Positions 1,449 to 62,440 are shown, numbered from the whole stretch's first letter. The stretch: 63,991 nucleotides of DNA, filler included, from Polymyxa betae A26-41 (GCA_003693705.1; 7 parts of 7 records of this genome joined end to end with filler, not necessarily neighbours in it), one strand, 5' to 3'. Notes: generated by a model not told the origin, from the sequence alone. Program-made: numbers and translations.

Positions 1449-3750
1449 TTATCTGCCTACCTGGGCAGAAACCCTGAGGACCGGCGCCAGCAGCGCCCCA
1501 ACTTCGAAATTCTTGTTGACAGCTCGGAACATACTGCTGAGGAAGGGCCGGAATCGAGGGCGGTTGTCTTCTGGAGCATATAGATCGGCCAGGATCTGTG
1601 ACGCTGTACGCCGGATTACAACATCGTTGACATCGCCATCTCAACAGCAAATATTCAGCTCATGAACTTGGATAATGAGTGCAATTAGATTCCAACCTCG
1701 GGCCGGTCGTAGAAGGACTTCGACAAGGCGGTCAATTATGCTAGTATGAGCCACAATACGAATAGCGAATGTGACGCCTCCTACAGCGGTAAGCTTTGCA
1801 AGCGTTTCAAGAGCTGCGATCAGAACATCGTCGCAATCGGGATAACACAGCAGTGACACTACCAAATGGAATACCTAGAGCACGTTTGTAAGTTAAAACC
1901 CACTTGAAAGAGTAATTTTGGTCGAAGAACCTCAATATGCATTTGAGTAGTAAGCGGGCCATGGTTGACTGTGTTTAAGCACAGCGTGCCAACCATTTCA
2001 AGAGCACGAATAACGATCCGTGGCTCCTGGACGCTCTGAAGTGATTTATGGAGCCAGCGCGATAGGTTGGTGAAGTTCAGTTTGGATACATCCAAATACT
2101 GAGCAATTAACAGCAATACATCCCCAGCTATGTCATCTGAAGAAAAATGAGCATAAGAAACGCATTGTAAAAGCCAGAACTGACGTTGAAAGACGTTATC
2201 AAGCAGATCGCCAGCACACGAATGGTGTTGGGCTATTCTAGGCTGATTGGCAGCCACATATGATAAATTCTTGATAATCACCAGCAATACACCAGTGATA
2301 TCAGGGAACAAAACATTATGCGAAATTGTTTGATGATTAGTTGTATAATGAGCTACATTAGGCAGGGACGAGCGGGACCCCAATACTGATAAATCAATAA
2401 CCAAGAGTTGGCGCTCTAGCAAGGCGACGAGAATTTCCAACTGTAGAGAAGATTATAGATCAGAAATACAAGTATAAAAAATCTCATACAAGAGCAGGAT
2501 AATCAGCTAGTAAAATTGGACGGTTTTGATTGTACGAGATTAACAGAAGGTGGTTGAGAGCCCAGCACACACAAGAACAAAGTCTCGATCGAAGAGAAAA
2601 CAGGATTGCTGCCATTCCTGAAATCCGGCCTTGAGTTAAGTAGACAATACAATCGCCGACAATCTATACCTGGCTGACGGTAATGATTGCTAGAAAAGTT
2701 CGATGGGGTAAACGGTGATATCGGCAGCGTCAGCATTGGATGAACGGGGACGTTCGGTATGTTGGATTTCTCTTCAGCCTTAGAAACCATCAGACATCTG
2801 AACTTTGCCGGTTAGGTTTGCAACTTTACCTGACCAAATTGATATTGTAGCTCAAATTCCAATAGCAAGGTGAAGTAGCCAATTCGTAAGATCATGACGG
2901 CAGCTTTATCAGTTGGAGTGCAAACAGAATCGAGACCTTGACGATTAACAACTGTATCCCACAGCTGTCGTTCGGAGACATGCTCGAACCCGCCTAGAGA
3001 CACCACCGACCGATACAAATTGAACAAATCTGAACTTCCGCATTAACCACTGGCTAAGGGAAAAGGATAAACAAATCAAAAAGTCAAAAGTAACCTCGTA
3101 AAAACCAGGAATGCATCACCAATTTTTTGTCTAGCGAAAGATGGCATTTGAACATGGAGATTGTCGGGCGAGAACGCTCTCCAGGCGTCTAGGAAGTTTC
3201 GTTTTTGCTCGGATTCGTTAGAGCCAAAAGGGCCCAGATGCCGAAGAAATTTCGGTGGGCGAACGCCAACAGAAGCCATGGCTTGCTTCATATCATGTCG
3301 AGTCGACAACCACGACGACACATCTACACATCGATAGATAAGCGTTGTTAAACAGCAAATTTTGGAGGCTAAATTTACCAGCAGCATGATGAAGGCATTC
3401 TCTAAGTTGACCACGAATTAAATCGCTGATTGTAGTGCATTGGATACGTTCGGCAGATGAAGCATCTTCTTCCTTCCATTGAACTTGAAGGATTTTAACT
3501 AAATCGGCAACCTAAGACTACAATTATTTCCCATTGTAGGCTAAGTAATTATAACACCTTGGCTTGTGGATTCTGCTTCTGAAGATTCGGCAGCTGTCGT
3601 TGCCGATAGATAAGAAATGGGGTCGGCGAGTACTTCCTAAGCAGCCCTGTTCCAGAACGACATCAGCCCAGGCGATGGCATAACGAATCGTCTCCGACGA
3701 GATACGCCCAAGCCCGTATCCTGGGTCTCGAGTATGGGATCTTCCTCCAT
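1449..3750 (-). CDS. HMG-box + ARID + armadillo-like chromatin protein (SWI/SNF ARID-subunit-like), multi-exon
   Basis: ARID: FLDAWRAF..MPSFARQKI|DLFNLYRSVVSLGGFEHVSERQLWDTV..LRIGYFTLLLEFE. Upstream spliced exons give PTPFLIYRQRQLPNLQKQNPQAK|VADLVKILQVQWKEE (HMG box). Downstream Leu-rich helical exons (AALETLAKL..IIDRLVEVLL). Ends approximate. Confidence 0.7.
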
Positions 3751-4124
3751 GGCGCGGTGCCTTCCAGCTAACTTCCAATTTGCAGCGCGGACGACAATAA
3801 CACGGATCAAATTTTTTCTTTATAATGGCGCATCCGCCGTCCCAGACCAAAAAGCTTCCTTTCACTCCATCCATCACGATATGAATGACTTTTTATGAAG
3901 CAAGAAGCATCATATCTAATGCATTCAAAGGGAGATGACCACTAGAAGGTGTCACACTGCTGAGTTCGAGTTGCGTCGACTGAGCAAATGTCCTCCTTTA
4001 CTTGTGATACGACAGTGGTCAGTGGTTATCGTTACGTCCAAGTCACCTTTGGTCAGGGTGATGGGATGAATGAGACGGCCCCACCAGCCCTGATTAAAGC
4101 CTTAGATGTTACACTTGTTCGTCT

Positions 4125-7100
4125 ATGGATCAGACGACTATTCCGACTCCATATTGTCTTACTCCTGGAAATGTCACCACTGTCGATCCAGCCGACGGCT
4201 GCCAGGGGGGCGACGTCCAAGAGCTGTCCCGGCTCCAGCTTCTAAACGAATGGATCCGCAATGAATCGGAAGTTTGGGCTTTTTTATTGAAGGAGGCGGT
4301 CTGCTTATTTGCTGCTCCATAGTTTGTGGCCTGCTTAGATTCCATCGACCAGATGATCGCCTCCCCGATTCTTGATCGTGTTTATATGGATCCGAGCTGC
4401 ATCGACGCTTTACCTGGGGTGCCCATATTTCTCTCAACCGCGAAAATACTCAAAAGCGCTCATTCGTGTATGCTTCAGCAGCTGGAGCAGGTCTCAAGAT
4501 CATGGTGTGAGCGCTCTTCAACGGTTGGCGATGTTATTGCTCACCACATCGGTATCATACGAATTTTGCTACACGGGTACTCATGCGGTATCGGCATCGT
4601 TGCAGCTGCGATTCGTCGAAGCACTAATCGAAATGAAACTCCATTTCTGCCAGTTCTGTCAGAAGTCGATCTGAGAGAAGAATCATTGAGAACTTTGTCG
4701 AATCCCTTAACCCGACTGCCCTATTATGAATATATATTGAGGCGATTTTTGGACAGAACGAACTTGGACCATGCTGATAACGGTCTGTTATCGCGAGCAA
4801 TCAAGTTCGTTCGAAGTGCCTCCAAGCATATTGCTAATGCTAACGAGATTTGTCGGCAGCACCAATCTGCTCGCGCTTTGGAAGAAACTCTGGATTTAAA
4901 TCTGGTCGAAAGCAATCGTATTCTTCTGCTGCAAGGAGAGCTTACTTGTTCCTTCAGTGATCACGATTGCCTAAGCGCTTTCGAGCCTAAGAAGTCGTTA
5001 TCAAAGCTCTTTCCAGGGAAGCAGCGCCCTTTTCTGTCGGGTGAATTACGTGAACACCCAGTGTTCGTTGTCCTTTTTAATGACGTCATGATTCTCTCAA
5101 GAAAACTTCCGGATGGGAGCCAGTCTGCATTTGATGTGATTCCTCTGCGATCCTGTTCCATCAACGTATCGGAGAATCTCCGACAAAAGATTTTGAACGT
5201 GAAATGTTGTGATGGTCGGGTTTATCATTTTCACAGCATGCAACTTGGGGAATCTTTTCGATGGATGGAATCTGTGCTCAAAGCGTACACCGAAGCTATC
5301 ACAAAGACAAATGACGGCGATGAGTTTCGCACCCAAATTGTATATCGGAACGAATATTGCCAGCTGCGGATCGCTCAACAATCTGTTATCATCACAGGCT
5401 TCGAGAACGAACGGCATGAACGCGCCCATTTAGATGTTCATCATATCAGGCTGTTCTCAGATCCAAGTGATGACTGTATTATCCAGTTTTCATCTGCAAC
5501 AAAGCATATCATCGTCTTCGCCCAATCTGCTAAAGATGCTCAGCGAATCACTCAATACGTCAAAATGGAGCAATTTCGAATTCGTTCCTTGTTGCCGGCA
5601 CTGTCCACCTGCTGTGAACGCTCGAAGTCACACTCAATCCAAGTTAATTATGAAAGCTGCTCATTATGCAACTCTTATATCGCTTGCTCTTCGTGCCTGA
5701 CTGCGGCCACGCTTCTAAGCATCGGGGGTAAACCCAGATCGGTCGTTTGCCAAATTTGTCGGAAGGTGTATTTTCAGAATATTATCGGATGTCCCGTTCC
5801 TGATATCAAGGACAATTCTGAGGAGGATCGAAATTGGGTCAACGTTGAACCTTTAAAAAGTGAAGTTGGCTTTCGTGAGGCACGAAGAATTCGTCATAAT
5901 CGCCGATTTGGTATCACGCGTCTTGCAGATCTCGATGTGAGATCAGCGATCCGGATCCCTCGATTGGAGCCTGATGGGTGCATTTCAACCCCCTTGTTGA
6001 GGCTTCGAGACGAACTTTGTAAACCACCATCCGAGTTGCCGATTCCAACTGTTGATGTGCCGCGAGTTCAATGTGCCTCATGCCTGGAATTCAAATCTGT
6101 CAATAATGAGAACCGTTTTTGCGGTGTTTGCGGTCATGACGAGAATCTCGTCAATGATCGGCTCGCCTTTTTATTCTATTTTCATGACACTGAGAAGGCA
6201 CTGGTAAAGCAGCAAATAGCCCTGTTCAATACTTTCTTATCCGAGGTTTCCGCTGATATCTACGAACCTGCACAGATGAGTCAATTTATCTATCGCCCGC
6301 CGAATATGGCTTCAACAATTCGCTTTGACACGAAACCAAATTCAGCTGCTAACAATCTTTCGTTTATGTTGGAAGGGAAATTTAATGCAAAATTATCGTG
6401 CCGTCAAATTCCCTGCCGAAATTGGATGAATTCTGGCGCTGCTTCTTTTTGTGTATCGCTTCGAATAATTCTGGATTTTTATATGTTGATGTTAGGCGAG
6501 CTAGAAGATCACCTACACAAATGGAACTCGAATAGCCGTTTAGCCGAAATGCTAATGCGCTATTTCCCTCAGATTCTGGCAATTTTTCGTGTATTTATCT
6601 GCAATTACTATGAGGCCTTGGAGAGATTCTCGTCAAGATCCTGGAAATTCTTGTTCTTTTACTTGCAGCTTCATTATAACTTATCGGTGTCTGTGTTGGA
6701 TATGATTTTGATGACTTTCGATCGTATACGATCTTTCTATTTAATTCTTTACAAAGAGAATATGACTGAGGGTGGCTGTTATCATGACCAGCTGCAGCAG
6801 CTTTCTGGCGGCCTGGCTTTATTGATCAATCGCGTACATGATCGTAATATTTCAATTCGAATGGCTCGCCTATTACTGTTACCTGTAGCCAGTTACTCCT
6901 CAGAGCGTTTCCTTTATAACTTTGTAATTCAGACTATCATTCCGGGTGAACGAGCAGCGTAAGTACGCTCCATGTTTCATGAAACTCGAAATAATTTTTG
7001 TGAGTGTCTATAGGCACAGTTTGCTTGTTCTTACAAATGATGTCTGTATTCTAGCACATCATAAAAACGGCGAGGATCAAAAGCTCTCTGTGTATACGTG

Positions 7101-39409: not shown

Positions 39410-40473
39410 CCACAGCAGCGAAGATTTGTAGCCCTTTAAGATTCATGCTTCGTTTGCACAATGCCTCCTTTTACCCCAATTCTGAGCGTTGATGGTATCG
39501 TAACATAGATGGCCGAAATTAGTGACTTGTTACCTTCGTTTTATATGAAACGAAATGGCAGAGCATTATTGGATGATTAGACAGATGATATTGAAATCTC
39601 CTAAAGGTCGTCATTGTCGAGGCGCAACTGCTGTTCATCCTATGCCGACCATCAACCTGATCTCAGATGATGGTTGATGACCAACCCCGAGCCGAGCCAG
39701 GCTGGGTCACCCCACCACCCCAATAGTCTGGACCCAGAGATTCGTCACGCTTTCAAATCGGCGACCGGACTTGACGAATGGAAACCTCGACGACATTGTC
39801 TCATACTGTTCAACATCCAAATGCAGACTCTCTCTCTCTCTCTCCATCATCAACTTTCACAACGTTCTCTGCTTTACCTGCAGATCAGCAGCCATGAAAT
39901 CACCAAGTTTTATGGGAATTCATTACAGCAGATTTCCAATCCACGACCCATTTTCATTTCGGATCTACAAAGCTCACGACCATCACCTATCCATCTCAAA
40001 AGAGCTTAATACAGTAACGGACATGAGGGCTGTATTCACAAAAGGCAAATATTGGCAGTCTACGGATATTTATGACTTGGAGTTAGGGTTAGGTGGCGAA
40101 TTGACGGAAATCGAAAGACAATCACTCCGCCGTCAGCTGCGACCAGGTCTCCCAACCTGCGGGTAGTTGATATCCGGCCGCGGCCAGGTCGCGGAACCCC
40201 TGTCGGGTGAGTCGGTGGGTGTGTACGCCACGGCACACGGGACACGACAGGCGGCGACTGATCCACGGCTGAATACATTCGAGGCAGAACAGATGTCTAC
40301 ATGATAGACGGACAGGTTTCGAGTCGTCGTTGACATCATCAAGACAGACAGCGCATGTGGGACCCTCCTCGTCCGGGGCCTGCACGACCGCATCGTTAGT
40401 CAGACGACATCATGATGGACACACAAGCTTGAAAGTGTTAAAAAATCAGGATGTTTTGTGTTTCCATCAGAGT
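39410..40473 (-). repeat. Inverted segmental duplication of about 35120-37080
   Basis: Reverse-complement matches cover the RING exon, its upstream intron, the 3' region (35580-35800 vs 39830-40040) and 36755-37075 vs 39415-39735. Confidence 0.9.
40122..40379 (-). CDS. Last exon of a paralogous RING E3 gene (5' part cut by contig end)
   Basis: APDEEGPTCAVCLDDVNDDSKPVRLSCRHLFCLECIQPWISRRLSCPVCR, nearly identical to 35209-35496, preceded by a CTAAC..GTGCAG acceptor. Confidence 0.85.
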   Translation of the reverse strand, partial: APDEEGPTCAVCLDDVNDDSKPVRLSCRHLFCLECIQPWISRRLSCPVCRGVHTHRLTRQGFRDLAAAGYQLPAGWETWSQLTAE

Positions 40474-48553: not shown

Positions 48554-50110
48554 GTTGCACGAGTAGCATCCGATTTTATCACGGTGAATGACAACCTGCT
48601 GGCATTGATCATGCTGATAGGGGCGATTGAAGACTATCAGACCGTAGTTGACATTATCGATGCGTCCACAAAATTAACCAGTCTTCATGTCATCGAGAAG
48701 CTACAAAATGCCGAAAGCGGCAGGAAGGTGCGTGATAAAGAGAATCATCTCTTTTGATAGCGGCAGCCCTGAAACAGAGATTATTCTGTCGTTTCTGCAA
48801 TAATGCGCGAAACTAATGCTGGCGCCAGCTTGTTACCATCTGCATCCTGAACTAAAACAGGCTAATGATAAACGCAATCAATCAATTTCTGCTTATTCAG
48901 CTTCTCAAACAGGTGTTAATCACATTCAAAGTAGCTGGTTGCTAGATTCGGGTTGCAACCGGCATATTTGCAGCGACAAAGGATTGATGGGAGCATTAAG
49001 ACACGATAATTCTCTTTGTATTCAGTTAGGAGACGATCACTATGTTATTAGACCGTTTGTCGGCACAAGTTTCGTGAAGTTCGGAGAAACGAATAGACAC
49101 GATAATTCTCTTTGTATTCAGTTAGGAGACGATCACTATGTTAATAGACCGTCTGTCGGCACAAGTTTCGTGAAGTTCGGAGAAACGAATGCAGTTCTTA
49201 AAGACACTATTCTGGTCCCGAACATGAGCAAGAACCTATTATCTATCGGCGTTAGTACCGAACGATCGATCGAGGTTTGAAATCCTGGTTTGATGGCGGC
49301 AGTTGCCATGTATATTCGTCAATCGAAGTCGAACCTGAAGGTACTTTGTTATGCTCGATTTCGAAACTGAACAATTTCAACCAGGTAGAAAATGCGAATA
49401 TTCAAGCCAATTTTGGCTTTTCTCGTGCGAAGGGCGACATTGCTCGAAGGCATGAACGCCTGAAGCATGGAAATTATATATGATCCTCATCAAGAACAGA
49501 ACGATCAGTGTTTCCAAAACGACTAGTCCTGAAAATATTTGCAGTGGATGCGCTTTGGGAAAATGACTCGGGTGTCAAGGACAAGTATGACAGAGATAGT
49601 TGCTGAGCGGTAGTGGTACGGCAGAGATAGTCTGGGCGAGAAACTGAGGCGTGCTGGTCAAGCGAGGTTGTATTAATGACAAAGAGGTTAACGCAATGAC
49701 AGTCCTATGGCCGAATGTCGAGAGATAAAGGCCGTCGGAATGTTCTAAGCTGAATAGGAGGCGGTCTGGTTGAGAGAGCTGTTGAGAGAGATAAACTGCG
49801 CGCTGCCGGAGGCCACGCTCTTTAATGAAGATAATCAAAGTGCAATCGCATTGGCTGAAAATGAAACTCAAAGTCGTCGAACGAGGCACATCGCTGTCAA
49901 GTATCATTTCGTTCGGCAGACAATCAAGTCCAAGGATCTACGAATTGTTTATTGCCCATCCGAACACATGCTAGCAGACATAATGACGAAGGCATTACCC
50001 GCGCTGAAATTTGCTGAGCTGCGTGATCGCCTTCTATACAGGCTTCACGGAATCTTCCCGACACTAGAGCATTCCTGCGACGTTTCCGGGCTAGTTTTCC
50101 CGCACTCATG
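48554..50110 (+). mobile_element. Degenerate Ty1/copia fragments (gag, protease, GAG-pre-integrase, RNase H)
   Basis: WLLDSGCNRH, VPNMSKNLLSI, RHERLKH..CSGCALGKMTR, EDNQSAIALAEN..RTRHIAVKYHFVR..MLADIMTKAL; 96-bp tandem duplication at 48999-49190. Confidence 0.88.
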
Positions 50111-50171
50111 AATACGGATTAATCAATTAACAACAATACATTGAGAGTTCGTTTGTTGCCAAGGATGGGAA

Positions 50172-50530
50172 GTGACGAACCGACAATCCAGTCTGAGAGC
50201 CAGGGCGATTCTCAGTCTCAGCGATCAGGAAGCTCCAATTCTCAACAGATTTATCCTGGTGGAGGCCGATAACCACGGATGCATTAGTGTTGCGAATAAC
50301 GAATATCGCACTGACAGACGTACAAAACATATAGACGTACAGTATCATGGCACAAGAGATAAGGTCAAAGGTCACACAGTTTGTCTGGAATCCTGCTCAA
50401 CAGACGAAATGATTGCGGATTCGTTGGCTAAGCCCATATGTAAGCCGAAATTCAAATGGTGTCGATCGCAGAGGGGGCTCACAGATATGCGCGGAGACAT
50501 CATTTTGCTCAAACCAGACCCTAGAGGAAC
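50172..50530 (+). mobile_element. Second copia RNase H remnant
   Basis: DNHGCIS..RTKHIDVQYH..STDEMIADSLAKP..KFKWCR. Confidence 0.8.
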
Positions 50531-50639
50531 TGTGCAACAAAAGACTCGCAGATATTTATGTATGTTTGAATGGGTGTGATTGCTTGTGACTGAAAACATA
50601 TTAGGGTGGGCTGCTCTGGATACTTCTTCGTGATTTGGA

Positions 50640-51360
50640 TCAATACGCCCCCTCGAAGAATTACCTTGGGATGATCTGCACCATAAAAACTTCGGCGCGG
50701 CCACTGGTTTTGTAAGGAGGTCGGCTACCATTTTTTCCGAGGCCCAGTATTTGATTTCGATTTTCCGTTTTCAACCAGGTCTCGTGAGAAGTGATATTTC
50801 ACATCGATGTGTTTGGCTCGGCTCTCCGTTCGGTGATGCTGTGTCATGGTCTTGCATCCCTGATTGTCCTCAAAAACGAGCGTGGGTTCGGTCAGGGTAT
50901 CACCTAATTCGAATAGAAGCTGTCTCATCCATGAAATCTCTCTTGCACACTCATAGAGCGCCGTATATTCAGCTTGTACAGATGAAGACGCTGTCGACTT
51001 TTGTAATGCATTCTTCCATGCTATTGGTGCGCCTGCCAGCATAATGACATACCCGGTTGTAGACCTTCTATTGTCCGGGTTTGATGCCCAATCACTGTCC
51101 GAGTACGCTGTTGATCGGCGATTTCCCCTGCTTGAGAACGTGAGGCTCTGGGTTTGTGTGTTTGTTTAATATTTGACGACCCTCTTTGCGGCTTCCCAAT
51201 GCTATTGTCCCGGATTGACATTGAATCGGCAAAGGGTACCTACTAACCAAGCGCTGTCGAGATATCTGGTGTTGTCCTGGTCGCGACATAGCTGAGACAT
51301 CCAGCTTCCCATACGGTATGTTTTTCATCCTTTCCTTCTCGGTTGATCCACAGGCGACAA
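50640..51360 (-). mobile_element. Third copia remnant (RT end, RNase H, PPT), opposite strand
   Basis: MKNIPYG, LAGAPIAWK..Q..SSVQAEY, FEDNQGC, RAKHIDVKYHF, MVADLLTKP; PPT GAGGGGGCG on the minus strand near 50650. Confidence 0.88.
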
Positions 51361-51482
51361 TTGTATCGGTCTGGGAACCAACTAAGCAATCTAAGCGCTT
51401 AGATTGCTTAGTTGGTTCCCAGCTTAGATTGCTTAGTTGGTTCCCAGCTTAGATTGCTTAGTTGGTTCCCAGACCGTTACAA
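51361..51482. repeat. Perfect 52-bp palindrome whose right arm is triplicated in tandem (25-bp unit)
   Basis: CTGGGAACCAACTAAGCAATCTAAGC|GCTTAGATTGCTTAGTTGGTTCCCAG (51371-51422); unit CTTAGATTGCTTAGTTGGTTCCCAG three times (51398-51472); outer CGGT..ACCG also pair; partial copy at 51717-51734. Confidence 0.95.
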
Positions 51483-52088
51483 AAATGTGTTCCGGCTCCT
51501 TTCAAGTCGTTCCTCAGCATTCCCCAGGGCATCCTCATATCCCCAGTACCTAAGCGCTTCGTAGTGGTATCCTGAAAACCCCTCAAAAATCCCCAGTCAT
51601 CAGAGTGACTAGAACTCCGACCCTCCGGAGAAGAACACATTTTTGTATCGGTCATATCTGAGGATGCCCTGGGGAATGTAGAAGAACGACTCGAAAGGAG
51701 CCGGAACACATTTTTGGATTGCTTAGTTGGTTCCAAACATACGTGCACAGAGGGGGGTCCCCCATCCGCGCGAGGATGGAATTTTGCGCAGATGCGCTTT
51801 ATGAAGTTTGATTTGGATCCCGCCCGCGACGCGGTGCTTGACTGGGCTGCAACTGATGATGACGCCAAGGTCGTATCCACCGACTTCTAGGTGATCTCTC
51901 TAACCGAATTGTCTACGACAAACCAAACGTGGTGATTATCAGAAGGTGAATATTGAAGTTGTATTGAGCTGAGAACAAACTCGGAACATGTCCGGAAGGG
52001 CTCCACAAGTTGGAACATTCCGGCATATCAGATAGTGCGGGGTGCGGAAAAGTTCCGCAGAATGTCCGGGTGGTGGTCGCTTCGCTAC

Positions 52089-52538
52089 ATGAAGAATTCC
52101 AATAATTACTATGATCTTGTGATATTGCTGTTGCTGGTTTCCGGCAGAAGGGAGAACGAACTACTGAGCCTCCAATAACGTGAAACAAATGAGGTACCCT
52201 TTCTTTTTGATTAAGAGCAGAAAAAGAAGGAGAAAGTCGAATATGTGGTGCCGTTATACAATATGAACTATCACGAGTTCAGGCACATCCTCGATAAAAT
52301 GAAAAGCATTAACCGGTCATTCATAAGGACACCATGTTGATGAATCTACGACCATGCCTGATAGTGATATTAGGAAGTGATGAGATTGTCATACATGCCA
52401 TCCGAATGCATGGCTTATGCTCATCTCAAGTAAGAGCAGTCTGATAAGGTTGAGCCGTTTCCTACATTCACGAAACGATTACTTGATCATGAATCGGATA
52501 AAACCAGTGTCCATTATAACCGATTAAATATCATTTGA
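52089..52538 (+). pseudogene. Protelomerase / telomere-resolvase-like tyrosine recombinase pseudogene
   Basis: NSNNYYDLVILLLLVSGRRENELL .. FLFD*EQKKKEKVEYVVPL .. IHAIR .. CMAYAH .. TFTKRLLDHESDKTSVHY gives the R-K-HxxR-H-Y order, with stops and at least two frameshifts. Confidence 0.75.
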
Positions 52539-52699
52539 AAACAGATTTTTTTCAAAAGACTAAATATCTATAAAATCCTTATTTAAACAAGTATCCGTCT
52601 TCGCTTTTCATGCGGAAAATGTTTTTATCCGCGCACGGATGAATTTTGCGCAGCCAGGCGCTGATTTTAATATCTCCCATCCCGGCAATCTGATTGTCA

Positions 52700-53106
52700 G
52701 GATTAATCAGCTGCAAGATAGTGTGCAGGCAATCTTAGATTTGATGGAGGGTCGCTAACGCGACGAGGCGCGACCTGCTTAAGGCAGCATGTCCGCTGCA
52801 GCTTTCATGGTGATCGTGGCTGTTACTAGCCACACGTTTGCGACCTAGTTTGGACCTAAATACAAATTCCTTTTTTGATTCTAATTGTTTGTCGAAACCA
52901 ACTGCAGATTATAGGCCCAGTAAGCTTTTCTCAGCAATGGACCCACTAAACAACGTCGTTAAAACGGACCCAGTTGACCAGATTCGTTCTGAAAGGAAAA
53001 GAAAATTGGCAGCTCTGGAAGACTGATGTCCTCCTATGGGCGAAGCATCAAAAAGTCACTGGCTTGGGAAGTCTATCAATTATTTTCATATTTCAACCAG
53101 CAATTT
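52700..53106 (+). mobile_element. 5' end of another copia element (LTR end, degenerate iMet half-tRNA PBS, gag start)
   Basis: ..CA|GATTATAGGCCCAG (52907-52920) versus the copia PBS GGTTATGGGCCCAG; VLKGKENWQLWK gag N-terminal motif. Confidence 0.6.
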
Positions 53107-53206: not shown

Positions 53207-56200
53207 TGCCGCCATCGTCATGGATACCCTCCACTGGCACACAGCCTACACATACGCAATTAAATCTCCGTTAATATACTCACTCCTTTCTAATCATATA
53301 ACGAGCTCAGCTCGGTCTCTAATAGATTAAGAGTCCCACTCTCCAGAGTAACCATGAATCACGAGAAACCGTCCCTTGTGCCAATCTTCGATGGCAAGAA
53401 CTTCACCAATTGGCGACAGCGCATGGCGAATCTGATTCTGGAAAAAGATCTAGAAAACGTTGTAGGGTTTGACACCACAACACTATTACCTCAGGAGACA
53501 CCTCCCACTATAACTACAGAAAACAGAAAGGCGGATATTAAAGCAAAGTCCGCTATTCAGCACCGCGTCTCAGATGACATCCTCAACCTGATAACTCCAT
53601 GCACTACTTCCTATTCCACATGGAAAGTGCTGCACGATACATTTCGTCGTAAAACAATGGCATCCATGACCGCCGCACTTAAAGAGTTTGTCGGCACTGT
53701 TAAAGGACCAGAAGAATCCATGCAGACCTATATCGCCCGCATTCAGGAGAAAGGCCGAGCGCTTGAGGATTCTGGTGTCACAATGGATACCCTAATTGTG
53801 GCGATGCTTCTTTCCAACGTCGGAACTTCGTATTCTGAATCCGTTTCAGCCCTCGATACCCTTGAGAGCGTTTCGTTGATGAAGGCTACAACGGTCCTAT
53901 TGAACGCAGAGATTAGCAAGTCCCAGACGGATTCAGCTCCTCGCGCCGTTGCACTTATCACCGAAGTACAGGAGCTCCGAACTGAAATAGCAGCACTAAA
54001 AGCCGCCACTAAACGCAAACCTCGCAAGTTCACTGGAACTCCATGCTCTATTCATGGCCCTCGATCGCAGCATACCGATCAAGAATGCTATCATCAGCAG
54101 CAATCTCAAGGGCAGAATAAACCAGCAGCTTCACTTTACACAGTGCCTTGCTTGGCCTCCTCAACGGAAAGTAGCTCTAGTCTCTGGTATCTAGACTCCG
54201 GAGCGGGACGGCACATGGCTTACGATGCAAACTGCATATCCCATCTTCGCCAGGTTGATGGGCCAAACATTCAGCTAGGCGACGACAGTATTGTTTCTTC
54301 GAAAGGCGTGGGATCGTGTAAAGCCCTGCTCTCTAACGGTCCTTGCGAAATAACTGATGTGCTTCACGTTCCCAAGCTTGGAAGGAATCTTCTCTCAGTT
54401 GGTCAGAGCACCAGTAAAGGCATTAAATTCTGGTTTGACGGAAATCAATGCACTATCTTCGGCAAAGATAACTGCAGACCTCCAGACGGAACCATATTAT
54501 CCGAAATTCCAAAAAGAAGAGATAACTTGTACGAAATCCCCGGTATAGGAACTCTAATAGCTGCAAATTTTGCCCAGCGAGGAGGACCAGAGCCTTGGAA
54601 AATTTGGCACGAACGAATGGGACATCTGAATCATCAAGATATGAAAAGATTGATAACCGCATCGACTGGAATGAAAATTCAAGGCAGCGTGAATGTTATT
54701 GAGCACTGCGAGCCCTGTATCGTCAGCAAGATGACGAGATCGTCCTTTCCTAAAAGTACAACGGTTACTACCCGCCCCGGTCAACTGGTGTTCTCTGATA
54801 TTGAAGGACCTTTTCCAGTCGCTGGCATCGATTCTGAATCCCGCTACTTCGTCACATACTTAGATCATTTCACAAAGATGCCCAAAGCGTATCTCCTTCG
54901 AAACAAATCTCATCAACTTGACGCCCTTAAACTGTACAATAACGAGCTCTTCAACATTTCTGGCAACAATACGAACCGATTGGAAACTCTCCAAAGCGAC
55001 AATGCTGGCGAATACCTGTCACAAGCATGCCATGAGTACTATGTAACGAACGGAATCAAACATCAAACAATTGTTGCCTATAACCCCGAGTCTAACGGGT
55101 CTCCGGAGCGCCTCAACCGCTCTATAATGGAGCTCGCTGAGAGTATCCGCACTCGCGCACAACTGGACAGGTCTTACTGGCGTTTTGCAGTCTCTACGGC
55201 GGTTTACCTGCTGTCAAGAAGACCACATTCCGCTCTTCCAAACAGAATANNNNNNNNNNNNNNNNNNNNNNNNNNNNNNNNNNNNNNNNNNNNNNNNNNN
55301 NNNNNNNNNNNNNNNNNNNNNNNNNNNNNNNNNNNNNNNNNNNNNNNNNNNNNNNNNNNNNNNTGTGGAACCCAGATTTGAACAAAATTATCGTCAGTCG
55401 TGACGTCATTTTCAATGAATCCTCGTTCACATTCTGGCGATCCCCTACGACTGATAAAACCAATGGTCAGCAACCTACAGATGATTATCCGGACTTTGAA
55501 TCGGAAGATGGTCATGCTGTATCTGAAGATTTTACACAAAGTTCCAGAGATGAAGACACAACTTGCGAAGTTTCCCGTGGGGAAGATGTCTGCGATCAAG
55601 AACCAATCCGTCGCCAATCTTCCAGAATACGCAATCCGATCGAACGCTTCGTTCCTGGCAAATCTGCTGCCATGTGTCAGAAGCTGGAAGCCGCACTCAA
55701 TGATAAATCTGACCGTTATCAAAGACCTCCTTTACTAGGCATTAGAGTATCAGATATTCCAGTACCCAATCATGTAGACGAAGCTCTGAATGGCGCATAC
55801 GGGGGTCACTGGCTTGATGCTATCAACACAGAATTTCAAAAATTAAACAAGTTCGGAACAATGCGACTTGAACCCCTTCCCGTTGGACGCAAGCCTATTG
55901 GATGCAAAATTGTTTTCAAAGTCAAAGGAAACCTCGATGGAACAGTCAATGAGTTTCGGGCAAGAATCACAGGACAGGGATTCTCCCAAAGACCGGGGAT
56001 CGATTATAAGGAAACATTCGCACCCGTAGCCCACATCGAATCCATTCGCACAATACTCGCTTTAGCCGCGCAGCACGGACTTATGCTCCGCCAGATCGAC
56101 GTCGTAGGTGCGTTTTTACACGGAACGCTAGAAGAGGAAATATACATGAAACAGCCCAACGGATTCGTCAAATCCGGAAATGATCATCTTGTATACCGCT

Positions 56201-57368
56201 TGATAAAGTCTTTATATGGACTTAAGCAATCAGGTCGGATATGGAATCAGCGTCTCCACGAATTCCTTGGAAAAATCAATTTTACCAGAATCCGTGCAGA
56301 CCCATGTGTCTATCTGCGTAACGATTCAGGAAAATTTGCTCTTCTGGGTGTACATGTTGACGACATGATCATTGCTCACAACGATGATTCATTATGCGAC
56401 AGCGTAATATCGGCAATATCAAAAGAGTTTGAAATCACGGATCTAGGTCCGCCATCAAAATTATTGGGAATGCGGATTTCCCGTGAAACTCCGACAGGAC
56501 CAATTGCAATCGATCAACCCTGCTATATTCAGGATCTTCTGAAACACTTCGAGATGCAGCAATGTAAAACAGCATCAACACCGGCCCAACCGAACCTTCA
56601 TCTGTCAAACGCAATGAGTGCCAGCACCGACGAAGAAATCGAGACAATGAAATCCGTCCCATATCGAGACCTTATTGGAAACCTCCTCTGGCTATCAACC
56701 TGTACAAGACCAGATATCGCAGCAGCAGTTGGGACCCTGTGCCGTTTTGTCGACAACCCAGGACCTCTCCATTGGACCGCTGCGAAACGCGTGCTACGCT
56801 ATCTTGCCGGAACTCCCACATTCGGAATACGATATTCGAAAAGTTCAAATAGCGAAATCGAGGCGTACTCTGATAGCGATTGGGCGAATTGCCCAGATAC
56901 CCGCAGATCAACAACTGGATACGTATTTCTCGCTGCTAACGGACCGATTGCCTGGAAATCAAAACTCCAAGCATCTGTTGGCTCGTCATCAGTTACAGCC
57001 GAATACCAAGCCCTCTACGACACGAGTCGCGAAGCGAAGTGGTTACGACAGCTGCACAAGGAAATGGGATTTGAACAGAAAACGCCAACCAAAATCCACG
57101 AAGACAATCAAGGTTGCATCGCAATGGCGAAAAACCACAGGACAGATGCATTAACGAAGCACATTGATGTCAAGTACCATTTCACCCGCGATCTCATAGA
57201 AGCTAATCAGATCGAATTGGAGTATTGTGAAACTGGGAAAATGGTCGCCGATTTCCTCACGAAACCGGTTAATGCAGTCAAGTTCGCTTGGTGTCGATCT
57301 AAAATAGGAGTAATCGACCTGTTCACCGATGTCTCTTCGAGGGGGCGTGTTGGATTAGCTCAATCCAC
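53207..57368 (+). mobile_element. Near-intact Ty1/copia LTR retrotransposon, gag-pol from 53354; LTRs cut by contig ends
   Basis: FDGKNFTNW gag; WYLDSGAGRH protease; WHERMGH..CEPCIVSK; integrase SDIEGP..SDNAGEY..NGSPERLNR; RT ETFAPV, QIDVVGAFLHG, KSLYGLKQSGRIW, HVDD; RNase H YSDSDWA..ADFLTKP; PPT GAGGGGGCG|TGTTGG. Internal N gap at 55250-55363. Confidence 0.97.
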
Positions 57369-57468
57369 NNNNNNNNNNNNNNNNNNNNNNNNNNNNNNNN
57401 NNNNNNNNNNNNTTAATTAATTAANNNNNNNNNNNNNNNNNNNNNNNNNNNNNNNNNNNNNNNNNNNN

Positions 57469-61328: not shown

Positions 61329-62440
61329 TCATTCGGGAGACAATTGTGTTTGGATTGGTTGGTCTTCAAAGTAGTTATAAACAGGAACTTCAGACGTTAA
61401 TGCTGCGACAGCAGAGCGGTTAACTGTCGGTTTGGGACCCTGTGAAGTATTCTCCTTGCGTGCCGAGTCCGCAGCTTGGTTCGAGGAACGGTTGGAAAAG
61501 TTGTTATTATAGCGCCTATCAGTTGAGAAACGGTTTGGCTTGGCGGAATCTTCTAAAAGATTGTCAGCGGCATGAATGACATTGAGATTACCTTCGCAGT
61601 CTCGGGCCAATTTAAAGATTTCATCGAGTTTGGTAACTTTCCGACCTGAAGCATACACCATAGCACCGAACAGCCTCGAACGCTTACGAAGAGAGTGTAA
61701 AAACATGCGACAGCAGGTAGATTCGGAAACAGGAAATTCCGAAGATACTTCTTTGGCAAAGCGGTAATACTGTGAAAATCGAGAGATATAATCCGATAAA
61801 GATTCATTCAGAAAGGGAGATGACAATTCCAGCTTTTGGCGCAGAACATCTTCAAGGGCTCCAGGATCAGTAGACGAAGCATACCAGGAAGCCAGATGAT
61901 CTAGCAGCTCTTCGCTAGAAGAAGCTTCATCAATCACAGCACGATCCTGGGCCTGTCCAACAAGACAACAATAACGATGCTGTAGTCGAACTTCTTCTGG
62001 AAGCAGATAAGTAAGTTTCGTAAAACGTGCACGGAATGAAAGGAATTTGAAGGCTCGGACAATAAGGCGGTCATCATCGGATAGATTCTTAGCATCAGAA
62101 GTACCTAAATAACGGAAAGCGTCATCCGAAGAGATAGATTCGCCAAATTTAGGCAACTCAGAAGGTGAAATATAAACAGACTTTACAGGGGTTGGGGGCG
62201 GAGGAGAAGAGACCGTTGGCTTTTCAGCCTTAGGTTCAGTGGTAAATTTTTGAAGCAACTGCATCATCAGATTGTTGGTCTGTTGCTGCTGATGCATAAA
62301 GCTCATGAAGACAGATTCGAAGGATGAGAGCGTTTGAGCATTTCCAGGGCTGGAAGCATTACCAAAATTTGAAGCATTATCTATCAATTATAGCATCATG
62401 TGTAGCATCGACATTATCAACGGTTGGGGGGAGATTATCA
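61329..62440 (-). mobile_element. Retrotransposon gag-like ORF (probably Ty3/gypsy type)
   Basis: 352-aa intronless ORF: Q-rich N-terminus, ELPKFG, CLVGQA, NESLSDYISRF (major homology region-like), MFLHSL..LDEIFKLA. Confidence 0.6.

Follow-up and report, generated by a model that had tools for sequence, protein, structure and literature searches.

The window, a stretch of 63,991 nucleotides of Polymyxa betae A26-41 (GCA_003693705.1), appears to hold, nested within one repeat-rich contig piece, the relic of a viral-type telomere-resolvase gene and a separate multi-copy repeat that contributes a long palindrome, a reading to which we give slightly better than an even chance. The window consists of seven contig pieces strung together by six N spacers; the adjoining pieces encode eukaryotic genes (Tho2, NRDE-2, Ras family, and RhoGEF), and the locus lies on the piece 48554-53106, made up of decayed copia sequence and other repeats. 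A previous reading, made from the sequence alone (the sequence-only reading), had joined gene and palindrome as an enzyme and its cognate hairpin site. Contigs were compared from six sequencing runs (X1, X2, X3, X4, X7, and X10), one of which, X1 or X2, may itself underlie the assembly. Some of the runs containing the locus are labelled as rhizosphere metagenome or carry a species label common to another organism's RNA-seq runs, and no RNA run is among those listed.

The gene relic and its relatives

The relic is a 5'-truncated, decayed gene for a small tyrosine recombinase of predicted telomere-resolvase fold, located at 52080-52538 on the plus strand and recognised by a profile of ten relatives, which matches 52080-52532 with 112 bits (E 1e-35) over profile positions 98-247 of 248. 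Stops interrupt it at 52176, 52212, and 52431, and the stretch 52313-52408 lies in a different frame, with 59% identity over 32 residues. The motifs GRRENE (52143-52160), EQKKK (52215-52229), HAIR (52394-52405, in the other frame), and DHESDKTSVHY (52485-52517) stand where the sequence-only reading had put them, and the catalytic Arg, Lys, Arg, His, and Tyr are all present, spread over stops and frames. The decayed gene that it described is real, but the extent it gave does not hold: homology is confined to 52080-52538, and the N-terminal ~100 residues are undetectable upstream of 52080, where scores stay at shuffle level for all seven relatives compared (p 0.09-0.65). The homology begins where a second repeat (51804-52089) stops. 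The ATG at 51792 and the following 96 codons were rejected as a gene start owing to shuffle-level scores and to differing GC and depth. Read in a single frame with X at the stops, the relic has no match in Pfam (PF16684 included), PHROGs, PDB sequences, phages, plasmids, viral contigs, or a word-indexed homologue search.

A short X1 contig joins the gene end (52512-52545) to a diverged upstream part with a canonical LGH...HY, as read by hand; this diverged C-terminus is not in X2, and the contig is possibly a second, less decayed copy of the gene. Separately, the last residues of P0003, the closest relative, are MPC, at the point where the frame of the relic closes with TPC (window 52310-52340).

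The grouping of the relic with telomere resolvases rather than with ordinary integrases is supported via its intact relatives, at the level of sequence profiles and predicted structures. An exhaustive search of 1.84 billion representatives returned eight proteins at E <= 0.001, the best of them at 8.6e-19. Those nearest to the relic, P0003-P0006, are all four partial, suggesting, as far as their sequences go, a clade of decayed endogenous copies; three relatives are full-length, at 244-263 aa. Bearing out the enzyme class proposed by the sequence-only reading, P0007, P0008, and P0010 match the telomere-resolvase family PF16684 with 59-64 bits and P0009 with 32 bits (cut-off 27), with the remaining four partial relatives below the cut-off, while the full-length relatives reach at most 32 bits on Phage_integrase. 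Among the Pfam profiles, the Crypton/DIRS families match neither the relic nor any of the eight relatives. Moreover, a profile of the relatives ranks TelA (E 1.6e-9), TelK (2.8e-9), and ResT (2.4e-5) above Xer-like proteins (1.6e-4).

The same order emerges from the AlphaFold model of P0007 (pLDDT 90.7), for which Foldseek finds TelA at E 2.7e-11 versus XerA at 3.9e-6 and, among viral models, the EhV-86 resolvase as the best match (E 1.1e-9). The model aligns with TelA at Z 20.2 (rmsd 5.4, 247 aligned), with TelK at Z 18.2 (rmsd 4.7, 244 aligned), and with ResT at Z 14.9 (rmsd 3.2, 142 aligned), against Z 10.7 for XerA (rmsd 15.3, 214 aligned) and Z 11 or less for integrases. It includes an N-terminal DNA-binding domain and a linker helix, both of which the relic lacks; TelA Tyr201 has no evident counterpart in the aligned relative. 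On these models, the relatives are predicted to be minimal ~250-aa proteins with a whole-length protelomerase fold, and their function is likewise a prediction.

At the catalytic positions, the 27 aligned relatives retain Arg in 25, Lys in 26, the second Arg in 27, His in 24, and Tyr in 27, and the motifs GRRxxE, Q/G-x-K, x-x-x-R, and LGH-x8-Y align with TelN. TelA and ResT are reported to have a Tyr before the second Arg, where integrases have His. The residue at this TelA Tyr363 position is His in the relic (the HAIR motif) and in 26 of the 27 aligned relatives, and Lys in TelN (KDSR); the His counts against filing the family as a PF16684 member. In a second profile search, 7994 candidates were scored and 26 proteins reached E <= 0.001; all but one of them carry a precomputed PF16684 domain, and 25 of the 26 measure 214-275 aa.

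In a tree of 39 rows, built with no integrase outgroup and midpoint-rooted for drawing only, the relic falls with P0003-P0011 and P0014 (11 rows, 98/92), and the sister clade has 25 rows (99/97). Three viral contigs were found (L004, L005, and L006), all belonging to the 25-row clade. L004, a virophage, comes from a record of 19.6 kb that is complete and has direct terminal repeats; its genes include a helicase-like one and those for a cysteine protease and a Sputnik-type minor capsid protein. L005 and L006 are polinton-like contigs with A32-like ATPases, and L005 also has a polinton-like capsid gene as judged by eye. In the Atlas, a 261-aa cluster that is 45% PF16684 and 90% viral, with Preplasmiviricota commonest, ranks second for P0007, behind an integrase cluster in the top row (0.97 vs 0.98). 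The relic's own clade has no locus in the viral scans (queries P0007, P0012, A3, A7, and P0013), in the metagenome scan (query A3), or in the prokaryote genome scans; query A6 retrieved a phage protelomerase only, P0007 found only weak integrase matches among plasmids (E 4e-3), and neither P0007 nor the L004 protein had a match among phages. Where the sequence-only reading had left the origin among virus, plasmid, and transposon, the sister-clade contigs and the Atlas cluster make it likely that the relic stems from a small DNA virus or element of eukaryotes, on viral contexts that are those of the sister clade in three of three loci.

One of these loci resembles the arrangement sought in the window. 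In L006, a PF16684 gene that is intact and encodes 279 aa is preceded, at a distance of 103 bp, by a perfect palindrome of 38 bp made up of A and T only (2033-2070). None of 1000 local shuffles and none of 60 whole-locus shuffles matched this palindrome, which is a candidate for the telRL site of a small virus of eukaryotes. Upstream of the resolvase-family genes of L004 and L005, no perfect palindrome exceeds chance. L004 also carries an 18-22-bp palindrome that recurs after gene ends (800, 5982, 8607, 9893, and 10811) and a histone-fold ORF at 3094-4389 (Pfam Histone E 1.5e-4, below the cut-off).

The palindrome and the repeat patchwork

To the left of the locus lies a decayed copia RT/RNase H on the minus strand (50642-51361), whose homology runs from 51258 to 50642 (tblastn with the window's own copia Pol as query, E 1e-61) and whose RT reading continues by eye to ~51361, where it ends abruptly. 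Within the contig, tblastn detects no continuation of the RT to the right of the palindrome, in agreement with the sequence-only reading, which had set the palindrome at the break of this RT. In the same decayed copia, contigs of X3 and X7 skip the GT..AG stretches 50559-50605 and 50717-50777, like spliced RNA; the skips are absent from X1 and X2 contigs, and X3 and X7 have no RNA annotation on record. One X3 contig spans 51771-52884.

A palindrome scan identifies a perfect 52-bp palindrome at 51371-51422 with the core CTAAGC/GCTTAG and its centre at 51396/51397. Only one other perfect palindrome of at least 16 bp occurs in the window, at 16 bp, and dinucleotide shuffles of the window give a longest palindrome of 14-18 bp in 20 of 20 cases. 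When duplicated units are collapsed, the arms 51367-51396 and 51447-51476 make a 60-bp perfect form, so that both lengths and the AAGC/GCTT centre claimed by the sequence-only reading are confirmed; the arms extend, with one mismatch, to TGT (51362) and ACA (51481). The palindrome is present as that reading described it, yet it is not a stand-alone feature, being part of a patchwork of inverted and tandem pieces at 51362-51737 that comprises a unit A, segments B and C, an inverted B, and an A remnant. Unit A (51362-51481), defined by loose ends and depth, forms the palindromic terminal unit (TGT...ACA) of a repeat that is present in many copies, and contains its right-arm unit two further times; this 25-bp unit (repeat family D5) is present in three tandem copies on the plus strand at 51397-51472, and a fourth, degenerate copy lies at 51712-51737. 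Segments B and C (51472-51652, from sequence and depth) are multi-copy, at 2-15 times single-copy depth, and their 20-bp inverted ends flank a second AAGCGCTT core at 51552-51559. An inverted copy of segment B (51480-51540), 92% complementary, occupies 51656-51716 on the minus strand; elsewhere, the inverted B copy is followed by a TGTATCGG end (loose end at 51716).

Between the palindrome and the gene lies the second, low-copy repeat (approximately 51804-52089), recognised by its depth of ~2 times single copy, by diverged copies with other flanks at 51809, 51841, 51929, and 52081, and by a GC content of 49-53% versus 39% in the gene. It has no match to the resolvase family or to Pfam, and ATGAAG at 51801 and 52089 may be its target duplication. 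Moreover, the gene is bracketed by a 28-bp direct repeat on the plus strand, detected as a pairwise match, of which the first copy (51764-51791) contains a small internal hairpin and the second (52627-52653), 88 bp past the stop codon, the hairpin ATCCG-CGCA-CGGAT. The two copies match in 25 of 28 columns (score 41, with none of 500 shuffles above 31). This repeat could be the real target site of the enzyme or a gene-end motif like the post-gene palindromes of L004; no joint uniting its two copies, as in an excised or empty-site form, is among the contigs listed.

Contigs from other sequencing runs describe the behaviour of the palindrome family. At the outer edge, 51362 (TGT), contig matches stop and unrelated sequence lies beyond in six of six runs, with five contigs of differing flank in X1, six in X2, two in X4, and one each in X3, X7, and X10, and with a flank agreement of 0.46-0.58 in the runs having several such contigs. 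Other copies end in CCGATACA, and some are lone palindromes with unrelated sequence on either side (loose ends 51399, 51418, and 51560). The summed depth at 51376-51394 is 1897 versus 24-31 in X1 and 30635 versus 287-330 in X2, or 60-100 times that of the gene, as summed contig depth, which is not copy number; over the gene core (52153-52500), X1, X2, and X3 have one contig apiece. The fixed end at 51362 with its many flanks, together with the excess depth, indicates the end of a multi-copy element that mostly lacks the gene. The palindrome is thus likely the end of a multi-copy TGT...ACA family of a kind that we take to be foldback or MITE-like, and is probably part of a separate non-autonomous transposon. 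Next to the repeat stand ACAAT on the left and AAAAT on the right, a comparison for target duplication in which the right flank is itself inside a repeat family and elsewhere one flank per copy is visible.

Loose ends of 30 letters point to three types of junction around a single AAGC/GCTT core, namely A/A' (in the window, X4, and X10), A/B' (a joint 51400/51543 on opposite strands and the loose end 51560, in four runs), and B/C (in the window). The palindrome arm is absent from the metagenome contigs searched. The A-B-C-A layout was not taken for a TRIM or solo LTR, the unit having, by eye, no adjoining primer-binding site or polypurine tract. The sole Rfam match, to mir-4788 (28.9 bits against a gathering score of 91), was discarded as a hairpin artefact.

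Repeats also occur elsewhere in the window. More multi-copy sequence lies immediately downstream, at 52675-53100 (loose ends 52867, 52969, 53058, and 53066), with no Pfam match in six frames, and a near-intact copia gag-pol follows at 53294-57420, with an N gap at 55250-55363. The decayed copia protease region contains an in-frame 96-bp tandem duplication (48999-49190, 98% alike), and a 352-codon open frame on the minus strand at 61329-62387 is gag-like by eye and has no Pfam match at E 0.001. An inverted repeat of 335 bp, 91% complementary (35144-35478 and 40110-40444, 4.6 kb between), encloses the nested inverted pairs 36893/39501 and 36996/39431 and is a candidate long-TIR element. Further repeats are a 71-bp inverted pair (26203-26273/31494-31564, 5.2 kb between), a two-copy repeat with a period of ~510 bp (23471-24346), and a 48-bp dispersed repeat (27331/42338). 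Short internal AACCCT runs, telomere-repeat-like, are found at 20071, 35489, and 38298.

Alternative readings of the locus

The nesting of a viral-type resolvase relic and a separate multi-copy repeat is favoured because copies end at one base, 51362, before many different flanks, because the palindrome far exceeds the gene in abundance, and because a second repeat intervenes, and also because TGT...ACA ends are those of integrase-type DDE transposons. Under this reading, a small DNA virus or element would have left a recombinase gene that lost its 5' part and decayed, and a separate foldback/MITE-like copy would have inserted into the copia RT beside it, with nesting and deletion in the repeat-rich contig bringing the pieces together. 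The repeat family would be mobilised by an integrase-type DDE transposase, and its perfect palindrome may have arisen through internal deletion between the self-complementary AAGCGCTT cores of two inverted ends. The intact enzyme would have acted in a TelA-like manner, its dimer using the catalytic Tyr to cut at a short palindromic site, with hairpin formation and strand exchange at about even odds; its own site would now be lost or would be the 28-bp repeat that brackets the gene. Against the separateness of the repeat stand the rarity of so long a palindrome (one in 64 kb) at 660 bp from the only resolvase-like gene, a proximity (<700 bp) with a chance of ~2% reckoned after the fact, the upstream perfect palindrome in one of three relative loci (L006), and the three junction types common to one core. 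Moreover, recombinase genes of polinton-like viruses reportedly tend to adjoin inverted repeats, and for the repeat neither a target duplication that could be fixed nor a transposase was found in the sequences compared.

The same observations are the strength of a modified form of the original proposal, in which the gene product cut CTAAGC/GCTT and made hairpin ends. The A/A', A/B', and B/C joints would be the telomere junctions of an element that was linear and hairpin-ended, and the fixed TGT end would mark the point at which an opened hairpin was joined to the host. Besides the rare palindrome near the gene and the protelomerase fold of the family, this proposal draws on the 6-bp self-complementary centre AGCGCT, given that protelomerases reportedly cut 6 bp apart, on the second core at 51552, on the third junction type given by the joint 51400/51543 and the loose end 51560, on the palindrome before the L006 gene, and on a reported precedent in Ectocarpus endogenous viruses. 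However, telRL is internal with both flanks kept, while here the outer flank varies in six of six runs; the palindrome is far commoner than the gene; the relic and 26 of 27 relatives have His in place of Tyr or Lys; and two of three relative loci have no upstream perfect palindrome above chance. The junctions fit a resolvase site, but two inverted ends that share a self-complementary core would yield them as well, by simple deletion or by fold-back repair. The palindrome has no DNA similarity to N15 telRL or to the viral loci, although protelomerase targets are reported not to be conserved. The fixed insertion end, the variable flanks, the excess depth, and the intervening repeat speak against a telRL-like cognate site tied to the gene, and we regard this proposal as unlikely.

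Equally unlikely is its extension, by which small eukaryotic DNA viruses (virophages and polinton-like viruses), along with related elements, encode a minimal protelomerase (~250 aa) that closes their ends covalently into hairpins, and by which the CTAAGC/GCTT site of that enzyme is the basis of a multi-copy mobile family in this genome, with resolvase and telomere junctions endogenised and spread to many loci.

A third arrangement assigns gene and repeat to one element with an integrase: a polinton-like element would have 51362-51737 as its TIR or attachment end and would encode this tyrosine recombinase in its end module, most end copies being non-autonomous. The His-x-x-Arg is the integrase-type residue pattern, and such viruses reportedly place recombinase genes beside inverted repeats and integrate in protist genomes. 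Were the 28-bp repeat a gene-end motif, 51764-52653 would be viral and less than 30 bp from the patchwork. Conversely, the 12 frames flanking the gene contain no capsid, ATPase, or helicase remnant, on a contig that stops at 53106, ~570 bp past the gene; the TGT...ACA ends suggest a DDE integrase; and the predicted whole-length fold is that of a protelomerase, not of Xer/Int. This arrangement appears a shade more doubtful still.

Crypton, DIRS, and Tec are labels for tyrosine-recombinase elements, and the gene could in principle be the relic of an ordinary Crypton/DIRS-type or phage-type recombinase with a chance likeness of motifs. The lack of a Pfam, PHROG, or PDB match for the relic alone, the weak Phage_integrase matches of some relatives, and the integrase cluster in the top Atlas row point that way. 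This reading is already largely refuted, and very improbable, as the sequence profile and two structure searches put telomere resolvases first by wide margins, and no in-frame RT or other DIRS gene lies near the relic (the Crypton/DIRS profiles being those of Pfam only). Lastly, an assembly or amplification artefact behind the palindrome and the inverted pieces, suggested by the fragmented assembly with six spacers and by the tandem arm 51401-51447, which no listed contig bridges, so that its count of three units is as assembled, is hardly credible, because runs of four studies have contigs that extend to or through the centre (X1 51046-51401, X2 51380-51446, X4 51362-51418, and X10 51362-51411) and near-exact overlapping contigs cover the copia junction and 51519-53033, the palindrome thus being genuine as the sequence-only reading had it.

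Significance and relation to known systems

The locus is a dead relic, and its value is that it leads to a ~250-aa protelomerase-fold family, about half the size of TelN. Some members of this family reside on the genomes of virophages or polinton-like viruses, whose recombinases have been reported as integrases. Should these enzymes indeed form hairpins, the model of how a widespread class of viruses replicates would need revision, and a protelomerase this compact could serve in producing closed linear DNA. An endogenous resolvase with telRL is already known in Ectocarpus viruses, and the minimal virophage-type family is the newer part. In a literature search with subscription journals outside its coverage, no work was found joining telomere resolvases with polintons, and only the Ectocarpus study joined them with virophages; for protelomerase with virophage, no title dealt with the resolvase-fold family. 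The main text of two 2026 preprints on polinton-like viruses mentions no resolvase, hairpin, or telomere, and their supplements could bear on novelty.

The relatives are predicted to share with TelA (Agrobacterium), TelK and TelN (phages phiKO2 and N15), and ResT (Borrelia) the whole-length fold, including the N-terminal domain and the linker. They differ in length (~250 aa versus 440-645 aa) and in the His at the TelA Tyr363 position; the relic is broken and has no N-terminal domain, and hairpin activity is putative. The telRL of N15 measures 56 bp and lies 164 bp upstream of its gene, whereas the palindrome in the window measures 52 bp, is centred on AGCGCT, and lies 660 bp upstream of the homologous part. 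In addition, telRL is inside its element with flanks kept, while the window palindrome has a variable outer flank and 60-100 times the depth of the gene.

Endogenous giant viruses of Ectocarpus are reported to have a telomere resolvase, a telRL, and fold-back reads (PMC13236599). Together with the Phaeovirus and EhV-86 resolvases, they parallel the window in pairing a gene of this kind with a palindromic site, both now endogenous in a eukaryote; in the Ectocarpus account, the site is internal to a ~350-kb virus, while here giant-virus genes are missing, the protein is shorter, and the outer flanks vary. Polinton-like viruses are reported to carry tyrosine recombinases, taken as integrases (PMC4642659, PMC11296320, PMC10120064, and the two 2026 preprints). 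The recombinases of virophages and polinton-like viruses are like the relatives in size and AT-rich make-up, and the sister clade is found on such contigs. Two OLV11-like proteins shown in PMC4642659 have no GRRxxE by eye, as unaligned sequences, and from sequence the resolvase-fold family looks like a subgroup other than the OLV11-like recombinases.

For the repeat, the closest parallels are transposon ends. TGT...ACA ends are described for IS481EU, and those of Ginger as TGTNR (PMC2836005, PMC10045372). Like the palindrome repeat, Ginger and IS481EU/Banshee combine TGT...ACA termini and inverted ends with many insertion sites. The left end and other copies begin with TGTAT, departing from the TGTNR start of Ginger, and only the right end in the window reads TGTAA; unlike in Ginger and IS481EU, the end of the repeat is itself a 70-bp palindrome with tandem units.
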